Of a stretch of DNA of 64,000 nt, positions 57,167-62,877 are shown piece after piece. The stretch is from Gemmatimonadota bacterium (GTDB taxonomy: Bacteria > Gemmatimonadota > Gemmatimonadetes > Gemmatimonadales > GWC2-71-9): contig QHTZ01000079.1 of NCBI GenBank assembly GCA_003221005.1, positions 13,750 through 77,749 on the forward strand, written 5' to 3'. The stretch's first letter is position 1, and the number at the start of each line of letters is the position of its first letter. Made by a program: the position numbers and the translations under genes. The notes beneath the pieces are model-generated. The model ran no database searches, was not told the DNA's origin, and saw nothing but the letters and a program-made list of their open reading frames with translations.

Positions 57167-58671
57167 GCCCCCGCGCGCTTGAGGATGAATTCGCTGAACA
57201 GGCGGACGCCGACCGCCGTGGGGCCCTTGGATTGGTACGGCGCCTCGCTCTCGGTGTAGGCGGTGCCGGCGATGTCGAGATGCACCCACGGGTATCCGTC
57301 CGCGAACTCCCGCAGAAACCAGCCGCCGGCGATCGTCCCGGCGCCCCGGCCGGCGGAGTTCTTCACGTCGGCGACGTCGGACTTGAGGAGGTCTCGGTAC
57401 TCGTCCCACAGCGGCAGCGGCCAGCAACGCTCGCCGGCGCGCTCGCCCGCCTCGCGCACCTCGCCCAGCAGCGCCTCATCCGTCCCCATGATGCCGATCG
57501 CGGCGTGGCCGAGCGCCACGACGACGGCGCCGGTGAGCGTCGCCGCATCGAGCACAGCCACGGGCTTGAAGCGGCGGGCGTACGACAGCGCGTCGCACAG
57601 AATCAGCCGCCCTTCGGCGTCCGTGTTGATGATCTCGATCGTCTTGCCGGAGAGGCTCCGGATCACGTCCCCGGGCTTGACGGCGGTGCCCGATGGAAGA
57701 TTCTCGGTTGCGGGGATCAGCCCCACCACGTTGATCTTGGGCTTGAGCCGGCCCAGCGTTTCGAACGTGCCGAGCACGGCGGCCGCGCCCGACATGTCGA
57801 ACTTCATGTCCTCCATGTTCTGCGCCGGCTTGATCGAAATGCCCCCGGAGTCAAACGTCACGCCCTTGCCGACGAGCACGACCGGCGCCGCGTCACCACC
57901 GCCCCCCCCCCGGTACTCGAGCACGATGAAGCGTGGCTCCTGCGCGCTTCCCTGTGCGACGGCGAGCAACGCCCCCATCCCCTGCTTTCCGATCTCCTGC
58001 CGGTCGAGGGTGGTGGCCGTAAACCCGTACGCGTCCGCGAGCCGCTGTGCCTCGTTGGCGAGGTACGCGGGGGTGCACACGTTGCCGGGTTGCACCTGGA
58101 GGTAGCGGGTAAGCCGATGGCCGGCGGCGATCGCGTCGCCCACGCGCCGGCCTGCCTCGGCGTCCTTCGACTCGCGGTCGTCGCACACGATGACGATGGC
58201 GGCGACCTCGGGGCGCGGGTCATCGGGCGCGGCCTTGAGCTCGGTGAAGCTCCAGGCGCCCTGCGCGGCGCCTTCGACGATCGCCTGACCCAGATCCCGC
58301 GCGGTCGTGCCGTTGCGTGCCTCGGTCGCGACGGCGCAGGCGAGCTGCGTGGCGCCGAGCGCCCGGGCGCGCTTGCCGCCGACGGCGGCGGCGCGACGCA
58401 GGGTGTTGCGGGTCACGTCGCCCGCCTTGCCCATGCCTACGAGGAGCACGCGCTGCGCCTTCCCACCCGCCGGGTAGAGGAGGCTCGTCTCGTCGCGCTT
58501 CCCCTTGAAATCACCGCTCGTGATGGCGCGCGTCAGCACGCCGCCCGCAGCCTGGTCCAGTGCCGCGAGGGAAGCAGGGACGCTGGTGCCCTCGGCGAGC
58601 GCCACGGCCAAGAGGGGCGTTTCGATGGCGGCGAGAGGCGTTGTGACGACGCTGCTCGCGGGCTCAGACAT
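57163..58671 (-). CDS. pepA: Leucyl aminopeptidase (M17)
   Basis: [39 protein letters not shown]. Confidence 0.97.
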
Positions 58672-59866
58672 GCTCGATTATGCAGTCGGCGAAGGTAGAG
58701 GTCGAGACCTCGGTGGCGTTGGGCATGAGGCGCGCGAGGTCGTACGTGACCCGGCGCGCTTTGATCGCGCCGGCGAGCCCGCGCACGATCGCGGCCGCGA
58801 CGTCGCTCCAGCCCAGCTCCTCGAACATCATGGCCCCCGACAGAATTACGCTGCTGGGATTGATCTTGTTCAGGTTCGCGTACTTCGGGGCGGTGCCGTG
58901 CGTCGCCTCGAACACCGCGTAGCCGTCGCCCACGTTGCCGCCGGGAGCGAGCCCCAGCCCGCCGACCTGCGCTGCAGCGGCGTCCGAGAGCAGGTCGCCG
59001 TTCAAGTTGGGCGCCGCGATCACCGAGTAGTCGTCGGGGCGCAGGACCAGCTGGGCGAACATAGCGTCCGTGATGCGGTCCTTGATGACCACTCGTCCCC
59101 CGTCCCCCTTCCCCCTTCCCGGGTCTTCCTCCGGAACCGTCTGCTCCCCGAACCGCTGCTTCGCCACCTCGTACCCCCACTCCCGGAAGCCGCCCTCGGT
59201 GAACTTCATGATGTTGCCCTTGTGCACGAGCGTGACGGACTTCCGACCCGACTGGATGGCGTACTGGATCGCCTTTGCCACCAGTCGCTGGCTGCCAAAC
59301 TTGGACATGGGCTTGATGCCGATCGCGCTCCCCGGGCGGATCTTGGCCTTGAAGTGCTCGGTGAGGAACTCGATCACGGCGTCGGCTTCGGAGCTCTGGG
59401 CGCGGTATTCCACGCCCGAGTAGACGTCCTCGATGTTCTCGCGGAAGATCACGACGTCGAGCTTCTGGGGCTCGCGCATCGGGCTCGGTACGCCCTCGAA
59501 GTAGCGCACCGGCCGGATGCAGGCATAGAGGTCGAGCAGCTGGCGCAGGGAGACGTTGAGCGAGCGGATCCCGCCACCGACCGGGGTGGTCAGCGGGCCC
59601 TTGATCGCGACGCGGTGCTGGCGGATGGTGTCGAGGGTGGCATCCGGGAGCCAGCTGCCCACCGTCTTGAACGCCTTCTCGCCGGCGAGCACCTCCAACC
59701 ATTCGACGCGGCGCTTGCCGTCCGACACCTTCTGGACCGTCGCCTCGAACACGCGGCGCGCCGCCCGCCAGATGTCAGGCCCGGTGCCATCCCCCTCAAT
59801 GAAGGGAATCACCGGGCGGTCGGGCACGATCCAGCGGCCGTCGCGGAAGTCGATGCGATCGCCCAT
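58664..59866 (-). CDS. icd: NADP-dependent isocitrate dehydrogenase
   Basis: [54 protein letters not shown]. Confidence 0.97.
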
Positions 59867-59918
59867 CTCTCGACACTCCTATCGGGAACGCGGTGCAGTC
59901 TACACGGTGGCGGCGGGG

Positions 59919-59947
59919 TTGCGCCAGCGGAACGCGGCAGTCATACT
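59919..59947 (+). promoter_or_regulatory. sigma70-like promoter of the porin cassette
   Basis: TTGCGC (59919-24)-17nt-CATACT (59942-47), 9 nt before ATG 59957; no SD. Confidence 0.55.
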
Positions 59948-59956
59948 ATTGCCTGC

Positions 59957-60307
59957 ATGCGTCGTCATCGCGCACCGTACCGCGCTGTCTTCTGGCTCGC
60001 CGCCACCTGTTGGTTGGCTGCCGGCCCCGGCGGCGTGGTGGTGCAGGCGGCCATCGCCTGCCGCCACGCCGCGATGCAGATGCCCGGGGACACTCGCGAA
60101 GGCCACCACATGCCGCCGGGTGGCCCATGCTTCTGTAGTCAGATGGTCGGCGCGTTCGACCACGTGCTGTCGGCGGCGGTGCCGGCGGTGGAGCCGGAGA
60201 GCAGTGTAATCCCGAGCCCGGTTCTGGCCGCGACCGACCTATCCCCCATCCCTCTTCCCCCTTCCCCCGCTTTCGCTCCGGAGCCCCCTCCCCCGATCGT
60301 CGCGTAG
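59957..60307 (+). CDS. Small exported Cys/His/Met protein with C-terminal polyproline; CutF/CruR (DUF2946)-like leader ORF
   Basis: 116 aa: basic plus hydrophobic N-terminus, ACRHAAMQM...GHHM..GPCFCSQM, Pro-rich tail ending APEPPPPIVA*. Confidence 0.75.
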   Translation: MRRHRAPYRAVFWLAATCWLAAGPGGVVVQAAIACRHAAMQMPGDTREGHHMPPGGPCFCSQMVGAFDHVLSAAVPAVEPESSVIPSPVLAATDLSPIPLPPSPAFAPEPPPPIVA

Positions 60308-60346
60308 GCTGAGCTCGCAGCTTCTCAACCTACAGTCTTCGGGAGG
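60287..60346 (+). promoter_or_regulatory. Putative SD-sequestering mRNA structure
   Basis: CCTCCC (60287-92, Pro codons) is complementary to GGGAGG (60341-46, SD); inner stem GTAGGCTGAG (60304-13)/CTCAACCTAC (60324-33) pairs 9/10. Confidence 0.6.
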
Positions 60347-60351
60347 AACAC

Positions 60352-61410
60352 ATGCGCAGTGCACTGTGGTGTGCTCTGCTGTGCGGGGTCACGGCGGAGC
60401 TGGCCGACGCGCAGGGCGTGCCGGTCACATTTGAGGAACCGCAGCCGGTCACCGTTTCGGGGTTCGCTGTCGGCACGGCGGAGTACCACCGCCTGGAGCG
60501 TATGAACACGCTCGGCGCCGGCAAGCTCGCGGTAAGTGTGTTCAAGCCGGTCGGCGAGACCTACTTCTTCGGGCAGCTCACCACGGCCCTGGAAGGCGGG
60601 GAGGCGTCGACCGAGATCGACAATCTGCTCGTGAGCTGGACCCCATCGCACGCGAGCCAGTGGTCGTTCGCCTTCGGTCGCTTCGACGCGCCGCTCGGCT
60701 TCGAGCGCGACGACGAACCGCTCAACCTCACGCCCTTTACGTCCTTCAACTTCGAGCTCGCGCGGCCCGCAAAATTCACCGGGGCCATCGTGCGCTACAC
60801 GGCGTCGCGCCATCTCGCCTTCGCGGCGGCCATCACGAACGGCTGGAACGTGACGGAGGACAACAACCGGGGGAAGACCGGCCTGCTGCGCGCCGAGTGG
60901 ATTGCGACGGAAGGGCTAACGCTCGGTGTCGCCTGGGTGTACGGGCCGGAGCACGACGGCACCGACGCTTTTCAGCGGAGCCTGTTGGCGACGGACCTCA
61001 CCGTGCAACGTGGCTCTGTCATCGTGGGGGCCGAGTTCAATCTGGGAGGGGAGCGCGACGCCATGGGTGGCAGTCTCCGGTGGGTGGGCGGCGCGGTGAC
61101 GGGATTCTACCGCCTGACGCGCTCGCTCGGGTTTAGCGCCAAATACGACCATCTCGACGACACGCACGCGGTGGTGTCGGGCGTGCCGCAGGTGCTGCGC
61201 TCGTTCACCATCGGGCCGATGTGGTTCTATAGCAGTGCTCAGGAAGGCATCTTCTCGAACGTCGAGCACACAACCTTTCACATCCCCCGGATCGCGGTGC
61301 GGGCGGCGCTGCACGTGCACTATTCGACCGAGCCGTTCTTCGCGAACGACCAGGGTGGCCTCGAGCGGCAGGACACGCACGCGGTGCTCGAGGTGTTCTA
61401 CGTCTTCTAG
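60352..61410 (+). CDS. Outer-membrane beta-barrel porin (BBP2/OprO-like)
   Basis: Signal peptide (ADA|Q), FGRFDAPLGFE, NGWN...DNN..KT, amphipathic strands, terminal Phe (VFYVF). Confidence 0.82.
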   Translation: MRSALWCALLCGVTAELADAQGVPVTFEEPQPVTVSGFAVGTAEYHRLERMNTLGAGKLAVSVFKPVGETYFFGQLTTALEGGEASTEIDNLLVSWTPSHASQWSFAFGRFDAPLGFERDDEPLNLTPFTSFNFELARPAKFTGAIVRYTASRHLAFAAAITNGWNVTEDNNRGKTGLLRAEWIATEGLTLGVAWVYGPEHDGTDAFQRSLLATDLTVQRGSVIVGAEFNLGGERDAMGGSLRWVGGAVTGFYRLTRSLGFSAKYDHLDDTHAVVSGVPQVLRSFTIGPMWFYSSAQEGIFSNVEHTTFHIPRIAVRAALHVHYSTEPFFANDQGGLERQDTHAVLEVFYVF

Positions 61411-61418
61411 GAGGCGCG

Positions 61419-61970
61419 ATGCTCTACGATCTGCGACGAGCTGACGCCAGGGTGAAGTGGCTCGTCACCTGTCTCCTCGCCACGCTCGGGCTCGGCTACC
61501 TATTCGGCTCGTGGATGGTGGGGCTCTTCAGCGGATTCACTCCGCAGTCCGTGGCCGTCACGTTCGCGTCGCCCGAGATGCACATGGCGATGCCGCCCGC
61601 GAGCACAATGGTGATGGAGCATCCCATGACGCTCCAGGAGTTCGGAGCGCACGACCACTACACGGTGGACCGTAACCTGCTAGTCCAGGACACGCACGTG
61701 CACGTGCCGATCTACGGCATCATCGCGGCTGCGCTGTCGCTCGTGGTTCTGGGACTCGACCTGGCGCGTCGTTGGGGCTATGCGCTGATCACCCTGCTCT
61801 TCGCCGCGCCGTGGCTCGATTTCGCGGGGATGTGGCTCACGAAGCTGGTGTCGTCCGGGTTCGCCGTGCTCACGGTGGCCGGCGGGTGGGCCATGGGGTT
61901 CGCGTACACGATTGTGACCGGCGTCGCGCTGTGGCAGATGTGGCGGCCGACGCCAGGAGGTGTGCCATGA
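61419..61970 (+). CDS. 4-TM inner-membrane protein with Met/His-rich loop and THVH motif
   Basis: SD GGAGG; TM1, loop EMHMAM...MVMEHPM...HDH, QDTHVHVP, three more TMs. Confidence 0.8.
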   Translation: MLYDLRRADARVKWLVTCLLATLGLGYLFGSWMVGLFSGFTPQSVAVTFASPEMHMAMPPASTMVMEHPMTLQEFGAHDHYTVDRNLLVQDTHVHVPIYGIIAAALSLVVLGLDLARRWGYALITLLFAAPWLDFAGMWLTKLVSSGFAVLTVAGGWAMGFAYTIVTGVALWQMWRPTPGGVP

Positions 61971-62509
61971 GACAACTACTCGCGAGCGCGGTCGCGGCCG
62001 CGCTCCTCCATATCAGTCCGACCGTGATTCTGGTGAAGCGCCCCGATGCCGTGCAGCAGCTGCTTCCCGGCGCGGACCGGTTCCTGGCGCGGGAACTGCA
62101 CCTGAGTGCGCACGACGCGCACCGATTGCACGAGGTAGTCGACTGGAGCCCCGAGGACGGTGTGCTGACATTCTTTGTCGGTAAGGACGGTGGGAAGGAC
62201 GTCGGCACGCTCGAGTTCGTGCGCGTGGACACGCCGCACGGCCCGCTCGAGGTCGCAGTGGGCTTTACGCCGGAGCGCACCGTGCGCGGGGTGATCGTCA
62301 CCAAGGCCACGGTGGAGAGCAAGCCATGGGTGCTCGCGGCGCTCCAGGCCGGGCTTACGGAGCATTACCGCGGCCTGAAGCTCGCGGACGCCCCAGGCGG
62401 AGCGGCGGCCATCAAGAATCGCATCGCTGATCTCCCGGCCTACATGGCGCAGGAGGTGGACAAGGGAGTCGCGCGCGCCCTTGTGGCGTACCGCGATTTC
62501 TACCGGTGA
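61967..62509 (+). CDS. Exported FMN_bind(RnfG-like)-fold protein, His-rich, lacking the SGAT flavinylation motif
   Basis: ATGA-coupled; signal peptide; DTPHGPLEVAVGFTPERTVRGVIV resembles FMN_bind strands; C-terminal helix EVDKGVARAL. Confidence 0.6.
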   Translation: MRQLLASAVAAALLHISPTVILVKRPDAVQQLLPGADRFLARELHLSAHDAHRLHEVVDWSPEDGVLTFFVGKDGGKDVGTLEFVRVDTPHGPLEVAVGFTPERTVRGVIVTKATVESKPWVLAALQAGLTEHYRGLKLADAPGGAAAIKNRIADLPAYMAQEVDKGVARALVAYRDFYR

Positions 62510-62514
62510 GCTAA

Positions 62515-62877
62515 CTAGAAGGCGCTCGCGAGGTACTCTTCGTTCCAGGCGATGTCGAACAGCCCGTTGCACCGCTGGCACCGCAGGTTGGTCGGTCGCC
62601 CGTGCACGGGAGCACGATCGCGGCAGCTGGGGCAGACGGCGTAGTACGGTCCCCAGGTTGCCGGGAGCCGGGGGGCGTTGTCGGGCCGCGGGACCACGGT
62701 CCAGCGCTGCGGAGGGATGGCGAGGATCTCGACGAATGGGCGGGGCACTGGTGTCGGATTGCCCTTCACGTCCACGACGACTTCCAATGGAGCGGCCCTG
62801 AGCAGCCGGTACCACGCGCCGCGGCGCAAGTCGCAGTTGACGTCCGCCCGCAGCCGTGCCCACTGCCGCTCCGCCAT
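62515..62877 (-). CDS. Hypothetical protein with C-terminal Zn ribbon
   Basis: SD GAGG upstream; YAVCPSC...LRCQRC. Confidence 0.7.
   Translation of the reverse strand: MAERQWARLRADVNCDLRRGAWYRLLRAAPLEVVVDVKGNPTPVPRPFVEILAIPPQRWTVVPRPDNAPRLPATWGPYYAVCPSCRDRAPVHGRPTNLRCQRCNGLFDIAWNEEYLASAF

Follow-up and report, generated by a model that had tools for sequence, protein, structure and literature searches.

Polyproline codons doubling as an anti-Shine-Dalgarno sequence: candidate arrest-peptide or coupled control of an outer-membrane channel gene in Gemmatimonadales

Introduction

Can the codons of a polyproline motif, a candidate site of translational arrest, also be the RNA segment that hides the ribosome-binding site (RBS) of the next gene? 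The question is raised by a locus in a 64,000-nt stretch of DNA from a Gemmatimonadota bacterium (GenBank assembly GCA_003221005.1, contig QHTZ01000079.1, positions 13,750 to 77,749 of the forward strand). This whole stretch is called the window here, and positions are counted from its first letter. In it, an open reading frame (ORF) for a small protein ending in consecutive prolines precedes a porin gene, and an earlier reading of the sequence (the original prediction) held that the proline codons form the anti-Shine-Dalgarno (anti-SD) sequence of that gene, to be freed by a ribosome paused on them. The analysis described here arrives at an arrest-peptide or coupled RBS control in which polyproline codons double as the anti-SD, in a protein family not previously linked to such control. 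The elements concerned are as follows.

59957..60307, plus strand: 116-aa ORF, first gene of the operon, stop codon TAG at 60305-07
60284..60296, plus strand: PPPP codons, anti-SD (60287-92 in the register first proposed, 60289-96 in the register of the minimum free energy (MFE) fold)
60304..60333, plus strand: hairpin of 9 bp and one mismatch, with the TAG in its 5' arm
60339..60354, plus strand: porin RBS, SD GGGAGG at 60341-46 and ATG at 60352-54
60352..61410, plus strand: 352-aa outer-membrane beta-barrel porin, BBP2/OmpL-like (PF07642), with a signal-peptide-like N-terminus

Pairing of the proline codons with the porin RBS

The components named by the original prediction can be read directly from the sequence. 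The codons CCC-CCT-CCC-CCG occupy 60284-60295, in frame with the TAG, and contain CCTCCC; the porin SD stands 5 nt before the ATG. Between the two, 60304-13 (GTAGGCTGAG) and 60324-33 (CTCAACCTAC) pair at 9 of 10 positions, with the stop codon inside the stem. The upstream ORF of the original prediction is a 116-aa ORF rather than a short leader, and the porin ATG follows 44 nt downstream. Folding of 60250-60370 with RNAfold, which had been proposed as a check, recovers the stem and pairs the SD with the proline codons rather than leaving it single-stranded, the paired probability of the SD guanines being 1.00 to two decimals. The register is shifted from the one first proposed: 60289-96 pairs with 60339-47, and A60344 is bulged. 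The 3' end of 16S rRNA carries CACCUCCUU, the canonical anti-SD, in four of four relatives; the 16S gene is unassembled in the source genome.

The stop-codon hairpin is strong in the window, where the stop codon is paired with the intergenic region at a probability of 0.998, as against 0.47 for shuffled spacers (rank 0.017). An intrinsic terminator was considered for it and rejected, there being no T run after the hairpin. A riboswitch or other known RNA family was likewise rejected; a search of 701 nt against Rfam gave no match at E <= 1. In the window alone, the match between proline codons and SD is not beyond chance, whereas across relatives it clearly is.

Codon choice and covariation across relatives

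Relatives of the locus were collected from species-representative genomes, where a pattern scan gave 33 loci, all but one titled Gemmatimonadales, Gemmatimonadetes, Gemmatimonadota or Gemmatimonadaceae, and from metagenomes, where 278 stretches with the ORF family were found. Eighty of these 278 were fetched: 47 added a new locus that differed from the others over the compared stretch, 30 duplicated loci already collected and 3 were cut. The combined set holds 81 distinct orthologous Gemmatimonadales loci, and in 75 of them the next start lies within 60 nt.

CCT makes up 6.3% of the 40,201 Pro codons genome-wide. Its share is 3.9% in the downstream ORFs (n=622), 11.4% in the body of the first ORF (n=430) and 33.9% in the terminal Pro run (n=115). 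In a codon alignment of 29 sequences, the middle Pro of PPP is CCT in 20 and the last Pro in none, while at seven other conserved Pro columns, in the same sequences and on the same tree, T is found in just 1-4 of 25-29. In the full set of 81, CCT stands as the penultimate codon of the run in 58 loci and as the last codon in none. CCU-CC pairing requires that CCT be penultimate and never last; a pause caused by a rare codon would not.

Among the 75 loci with a close start, 68 have CCT within the Pro run. The other seven fall into two kinds: four carry a CTCCG match to the SD, and three have an SD without A (GGGGG). In three of the four, a rare Ser codon, TCT, with a share of 2.8% among Ser codons, provides the 5' CT of CTCCG, and in L026 the match lies further upstream in the tail. 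In all three loci with an all-G SD the Pro run consists of C only and is still complementary (CCCCC, CCCCCAA, TCCCCCG); the association of the all-G SD with loss of CCT has a Fisher probability of 5e-4, with phylogeny ignored. One of them, L047, can be compared with its TAG-stop kin L044, L048 and L049, from which it differs by CCU to CCC together with an all-G SD in place of GGGAGG/GGAGG; in our reading this would be a double change from U-A to C-G.

Complementarity is also matched locus by locus. A perfect complement of 7 nt or longer is present in 57 of the 75 loci, and the longest one often reaches past the SD core into the Asn or Ile codon that follows PPP. The ORF tail has a complement of 7.24 nt with its own SD and of 6.72 nt with the SDs of other loci, a difference exceeded in none of 5000 permutations, and the duplex energy is -15.6 kcal/mol with the own SD against -14.9 kcal/mol for cross pairs (matched in 6 of 5000).

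Partition-function folds agree with these counts. Pairing between the SD core and the final 36 nt of coding sequence has a mean probability of 0.92, compared with 0.52 in synonymous recodings, and 18 of 30 loci lie in the top 5% of their own recodings. In the MFE structures, read by eye as printed, the SD pairs with the Pro tract in 30 of 30. The stop-codon hairpin, which the original prediction had placed between the two segments, is common in the relatives and not universal: its probability is at least 0.5 in 45 of 75 loci, its mean is 0.61 versus 0.41, and 31 of 75 loci are in the top 5%. It comes in two versions: GGCUGAC/GUUAGCC goes with TGA as the stop codon, GUAGGCUGAG/CUCAACCUAC with TAG.

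The comparison thus displays the pairing, its conservation and selection at synonymous sites. The claim that the proline codons are the anti-SD is upheld by the constraint on CCT, the U-A to C-G covariation and the pairing predicted throughout the folded relatives, and we regard this pairing as very probably real and selected.

Ribosome occupancy and a possible mechanism

The original prediction went further and proposed that a ribosome paused on PPPP occludes the anti-SD and frees the SD. Footprint folding placed Pro-Pro in the P and A sites and blocked positions -15 to +14 around the P-site codon, an assumed footprint size. The probability that the SD core is unpaired and the cost of opening the SD-to-start region were as follows.

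Free RNA: unpaired 0.05, opening cost 16.7 kcal/mol
Stalled footprint: unpaired 0.14, opening cost 13.3 kcal/mol
Stalled footprint with all 5' RNA blocked: unpaired 0.31, opening cost 11.1 kcal/mol
Terminating ribosome: unpaired 0.11, opening cost 13.6 kcal/mol
Terminating ribosome with all 5' RNA blocked: opening cost 11.3 kcal/mol

The window opening cost goes from 15.9 through 12.2 to 8.1 kcal/mol. In these folds, occlusion of the anti-SD lowers the cost of opening the RBS, and the SD is freed only partly. In silico and by comparison, the SD is sequestered, and a ribosome positioned at the ORF end would disrupt the pairing, with partial relief. From these predicted folds, the pairing probably makes porin translation depend on ribosomes at the ORF end. 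By analogy with known arrest systems, we lean slightly towards a regulated PPP pause that tunes this translation; the case for the pause is circumstantial, because it is built from the invariant PP placed 3-4 codons before the stop (77 of 81 loci), the efp gene and the CutF/CruR-like layout.

A mechanism can be outlined as follows. A four-gene operon specific to Gemmatimonadales opens with a small, probably exported, sensor-like His/Cys protein ending in PPP plus 3-4 residues. Its second gene codes for a channel of the outer membrane, which is a BBP2 porin in the window and, in some relatives, a TonB-dependent receptor. The helix between proline codons and SD usually closes over a small hairpin holding the stop codon. 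A ribosome on the last ~8 codons of the first ORF would hold the anti-SD inside it, making the porin RBS easier to open, and a pause at PPP would prolong this state. EF-P and pulling by the Sec machinery would counter the pause, and metal bound to the nascent periplasmic His/Cys domain might perhaps tune it, so that the duration of the pause would set the amount of channel protein. Export, metal binding, pausing and the sign of the response we infer by analogy with CutF, CruR and SecM. The outer-membrane channels, together with the Met/His-rich loop of the third gene product, hint, by their composition only, at possible metal traffic.

Comparison with known arrest systems

The closest parallels are found in two copper-responsive systems. 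As stated in the original prediction, a stem-loop masking the cutO RBS is relieved by translation of CutF, and polyproline stalls ribosomes in an EF-P-dependent way. In the cutFOG operon of Rhodobacter capsulatus, CutF belongs to DUF2946; it carries a Sec signal and a CxxxC motif and terminates in PEPEGPPPRL. Its PPP stalls ribosomes in a copper-dependent manner that EF-P counteracts, and melting of the stem-loop over the cutO SD, within the 40-nt spacer, by such stalling has been demonstrated by experiment; the stalling is proposed to unmask the SD (Ozturk et al., 2021, 2023, 2025). The Gemmatimonadales ORF resembles CutF in encoding a small, here putatively exported, protein with a Cys/His motif, in having a C-terminal PPP near the stop, in the masking of the next gene's SD by RNA and in its short intergenic region (40 nt in CutF, 44 nt here). 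With 116 aa, PPPP 4-7 residues from the end and the porin gene 44 nt downstream, it falls within the size, motif and spacing rules among the filters for CutF-like proteins (fewer than 150 aa, PP in the last 15 residues, a same-strand gene within less than 1000 nt; Ozturk 2023). A further filter is a Sec signal peptide cleaved by signal peptidase I, and the N-terminus of the ORF product is signal-peptide-like. The supplementary text of that 2023 paper (8 kb, the lists of File S1 excluded) makes no mention of Gemmatimonadota or porins.

On the other hand, the ORF has no detectable sequence homology to CutF and carries C-x-C and a His run rather than CxxxC, and the regulated gene encodes an outer-membrane channel instead of a multicopper oxidase. 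The anti-SD, too, is differently placed: it consists of the PPP codons here, whereas that of CutF is described as sitting within the stem-loop, in the intergenic region between cutF and cutO (Ozturk et al.).

CruR of Bordetella pertussis, a DUF2946 upstream ORF with CXXC and RAPP, precedes the TonB-dependent transporter gene bfrG and acts through Rho at a region richer in C than in G (a C>G bubble) with an unstructured 162-nt spacer; copper relieves the arrest (Roy et al., 2022). The likeness lies in an upstream ORF for a Cys-motif protein that is exported, presumably so here, in the C-rich 3' region and in the outer-membrane uptake protein encoded downstream, which is a TonB-dependent receptor in 5 of 34 relatives of the present locus. 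The arrest motifs are placed comparably, RAPP 3 residues from the end of CruR, PPP 2 residues from that of CutF and PPP 3-4 codons from the stop here. The difference is that PPP, a short structured spacer and a paired SD are found here, as against RAPP, Rho termination and a long unstructured spacer in CruR.

No homology to CutF or CruR could be detected in the protein sequence. The ORF gave no match to PF11162 (DUF2946) at E <= 10, nor did anything in the whole genome, and none of 68 representatives of the ORF family matches it at E <= 0.01. In place of the CutF-CruR motif, the family has an invariant C58-x-C60 with C35 and a His run, and the PPP ending. DUF2946-like ORFs at or near the cut-off do occur elsewhere in the phylum (L124-L144; 9 of 301 genomes above the cut-off). 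They carry CxxC, end in SRAPP and do not align with the ORF family: hhalign of the 29-sequence family alignment against 15 of them gave a probability of 0.8% over 11 aligned columns. Their downstream spacers appear long, with no obvious start in most of the 100-odd nt, and CCU at their APP codons is inconsistent (by eye, about 4 of 17).

SecM-secA, MifM-yidC2 and VemP-secDF share the principle that translation of an exported protein halts close to the C-terminal end of the nascent chain, with the stalled ribosome unfolding a stem-loop over the SD of the next gene. Their specific peptide motifs report the activity of the export machinery; here the candidate motif is polyproline, and the same nucleotides form the anti-SD. 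In mgtL and mgtP of Salmonella, the speed of EF-P-dependent translation of Pro codons in a leader ORF reportedly decides between RNA structures for the downstream genes. Those leaders are said to be very short and cytoplasmic and to control transcription elongation, whereas here an SD is masked by the Pro codons of a 116-aa ORF.

Alternative explanations

A number of observations weigh against an arrest or coupling mechanism built on the pairing. The fold of the window is not unusually stable (MFE z-score -0.21; 73 of 200 shuffles fold as well), 77 of the 257 PPP runs in the long ORFs of this genome (~30%) contain CCTCC, and SD pairing in the window, 0.80 against 0.65 in its own synonymous recodings, has a rank of 0.19. 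So unremarkable a window is compatible with a mere by-product, in which Pro-rich coding sequence of high GC content is C-rich and pairs with any GGAGG, with no selected RNA function, and the recoded nulls of the relatives do still pair the SD with the coding tail at 0.52. RNAalifold on a 30-sequence MAFFT alignment returned no consensus structure and 0 pairs, which is still a negative, although we attribute it to register shifts and gaps; a self-specified structure is 77% paired on the MAFFT alignment, versus 25-48% when slid by 1-3 columns. Moreover, the Fisher and permutation values are overstated, because all loci are orthologues of one locus in one order and the counts are not independent. 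A by-product does not account for a rare codon being fixed at one column and not at the seven other Pro columns, for the absence of CCT from the last codon, or for its loss together with the SD A in three of three loci, and the comparison of own and cross complementarity argues against it as well. This reading, already disfavoured, is considered highly improbable.

The remaining adverse points concern the pause and the sensor. Folding with the stalled footprint leaves most of the SD core pairing in place, and the SD of the window re-pairs with upstream C-rich Pro/Ser codons at a probability of 0.94. A terminating ribosome relieves the RBS about as much as a stalled one, and therefore the fold needs no pause. 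Metal sensing is argued from composition, because there is no homology to DUF2946/CutF. The equal relief is what would be expected from plain translational coupling, in which the helix merely ties channel translation to completed translation of the first ORF, while PPP and the His/Cys residues serve a periplasmic function. The pairing and its selection fit this equally well, and EF-P, which normally resolves PPP, is present. What it leaves aside is that PP is invariant at a fixed distance of 3-4 codons before the stop, a place typical of arrest motifs such as the RAPP of CruR and the PPP of CutF, and that the layout of the protein follows the same rules as in CutF-like sensors; coupling of this plain kind is held to be unlikely.

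Attenuation of the CruR type is another candidate. Rho would load on the 3' third of the ORF, which is rich in C and poor in G; an arrested ribosome at PPP would bar Rho, the end of the arrest would allow Rho to stop transcription ahead of the channel gene, and the pairing with the SD would be auxiliary or a second layer. A C>G bubble is present, with contents of C 0.51 and G 0.17 on average over 77 loci and of C 0.53 and G 0.19 in the window (78-nt segments centred 30-50 nt before the stop); it takes in the last ~80 nt of the ORF (60215-60305 in the window). This signature is reported for the Rho loading site of cruR, and the regulated gene of five of the 34 genome loci resembles that of CruR-BfrG. 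The shared bubble therefore keeps a Rho component as a live rival or as an added layer. However, CruR is reported to need unstructured RNA and its 162-nt intergenic region, whereas most loci here have a spacer of 34-58 nt and a C-rich tail whose predicted partner is the SD, and a Rho-utilization (rut) site would leave the CCT at a fixed codon and its covariation with the SD A unexplained. Attenuation as the principal control is thought quite unlikely. The explanation by arrest or coupled RBS control in the four-gene operon, taken as a whole, is favoured, if by a modest degree.

Significance

In the literature searched, with most subscription journals outside its coverage, no description of polyproline codons as an anti-SD was found. 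According to a 2025 preprint, RBSs are inhibited at long range by pyrimidine tracts that resemble the anti-SD, and genes are depleted of such tracts; their fixation in an ORF family is therefore notable. The locus offers a clean natural case of dual coding: one set of six to nine nucleotides is under constraint as Pro-Pro, a candidate arrest motif, and also as partner of an SD, with a measurable signature in a rare codon that is fixed at a single site and covaries with the SD. It would extend control of the CutF/CruR type, by a nascent exported protein, to porins, and to a phylum and a protein family with no detectable link to DUF2946. A simple screen is suggested: upstream ORFs that end in PPP with CCU and complementarity to the next SD.

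A broader idea starts from polyproline arrest motifs as natural anti-SDs, because CCU-CCN mimics the 16S 3' end: among upstream ORFs ending in PPP, CutF-like and DUF2946 ones included, there may be many in which the next RBS is masked by the stalling codons and not by a separate intergenic arm. It is put forward tentatively and is rather doubtful. If it were true, a single ribosome sitting on a single hexamer would combine the roles of sensor and switch, evolution may use the trick widely, and the Gemmatimonadales family would be the first documented case, with a DUF2946-independent origin of CutF/CruR-type control of outer-membrane metal uptake.

The family of the first ORF

The 116-aa protein begins with a basic N-terminus (MRRHR) followed by a hydrophobic stretch (CWLAAGPGG) and AIA-C, resembling a signal peptide with an unusually conserved hydrophobic core. 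Its middle part is rich in His, Cys and Met (C35, HH, GPCFCSQM), and its Pro/Ser-rich tail, C-rich at the nucleotide level, ends in PEPPPPIVA-stop. Invariant in the 29-sequence alignment are W19, L20, G23, P24, C35, C58, C60, M63, P108, P112 and P113. The family ending is PPP[NI]xx[AG], and PPP and the stop lie 3-4 codons apart in all but 4 of the 81 loci. The codon alignment shows free variation of third positions where the N-terminal segment has conserved Gly and Pro codons; therefore the long ORF is translated from the ATG at 59957. The entry for this protein in a public protein atlas begins at residue 28, read as M, and drops the conserved N-terminus (59957-60037 in the window). This is probably a start-site miscall of automatic annotation, because it removes the invariant W19, L20, G23 and P24, and the annotation is corrected here.

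Among 40 related genomes, 6 were found to have the ORF conserved (E <= 1e-15). Pfam and NCBIfam contain no family for it, or for the products of the third and fourth genes described below, and a search of the protein atlas gave unnamed Gemmatimonadota clusters only and, as a single weak lead, DUF6660. Among 1.84 billion representatives, a profile search found only 69 clusters, and the family is therefore narrow and lineage-specific. Another protein, P0057 (2253 aa), matches the family profile in 12 separate stretches, the best covering profile positions 15-77; it may be a repeat protein of the hydrophobic and His/Cys module, or a low-complexity artefact.

The operon and its upstream region

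The ORF and the porin gene are flanked by the following features.

58664-59866, minus strand: isocitrate dehydrogenase gene (icd), PF00180, divergent from the 116-aa ORF
59898..59949, plus strand: conserved block AGTCTACAC at 59898-906, -35-like TTGCGC at 59919-24 and -10-like TACTAT at 59944-49
61419..61970, plus strand: 183-aa membrane protein (mp183) with Met/His-rich loop EMHMAMPPASTMVMEHPM, third operon gene
61967..62509, plus strand: 180-aa protein (p180), fourth operon gene
62515-62877, minus strand: 120-aa ORF converging on the operon end

The order icd, ORF, porin, mp183, p180 is syntenic in relatives. The porin is BBP2/OmpL-like by its match to PF07642 over residues 82-291 (E 1.7e-16; 60.8 bits, cut-off 26.2), and a porin gene follows the ORF in 29 of 34 genome loci. 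In the other five a TonB-dependent receptor with Plug and barrel domains (E <= 1e-18) takes its place.

L010:2988-4991, TonB-dependent receptor
L022:1403-3421, TonB-dependent receptor
L030:2923-4914, TonB-dependent receptor
L031:2898-4898, TonB-dependent receptor
L042:320-2341, TonB-dependent receptor

The receptor starts 52-151 nt past the ORF in these loci. L010 and L042, which have no CCT- or TCT-based pairing near a close SD, are both among them. The fourth gene product, p180, has 963 homologues, and the 120 listed are unnamed or called 'hypothetical protein' and have no Pfam domain.

When the 100 nt upstream of the ORF were compared in 29 loci, the 60 nt next to it proved strongly conserved, with blocks at fixed spacing in the order AGTCTACAC, GGGTTGCGCCAG, a spacer of 18-19 nt and TAnACT ending 7 nt before the ATG. 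This arrangement suggests that 59898-59949 may be the promoter of a leaderless or nearly leaderless mRNA, with the transcript starting at or next to the ATG; the conserved region is also a possible operator. The promoter reading is drawn from conservation judged by eye, because a strict consensus scan for sigma-70 promoters and terminators returned 0 sites. In three soil metatranscriptome runs, 151-nt contigs covered 60330-60658 and 61240-61390 at a depth of 2 and none lay over the first ORF; coverage is too thin and is therefore uninformative on co-transcription or expression.

The 120-aa minus-strand ORF at the end of the operon resembles zinc ribbons weakly (E 1.8e-4 for the SprT-like zinc ribbon, a match below the cut-off), and it also adjoins the operon in L026 and L035.

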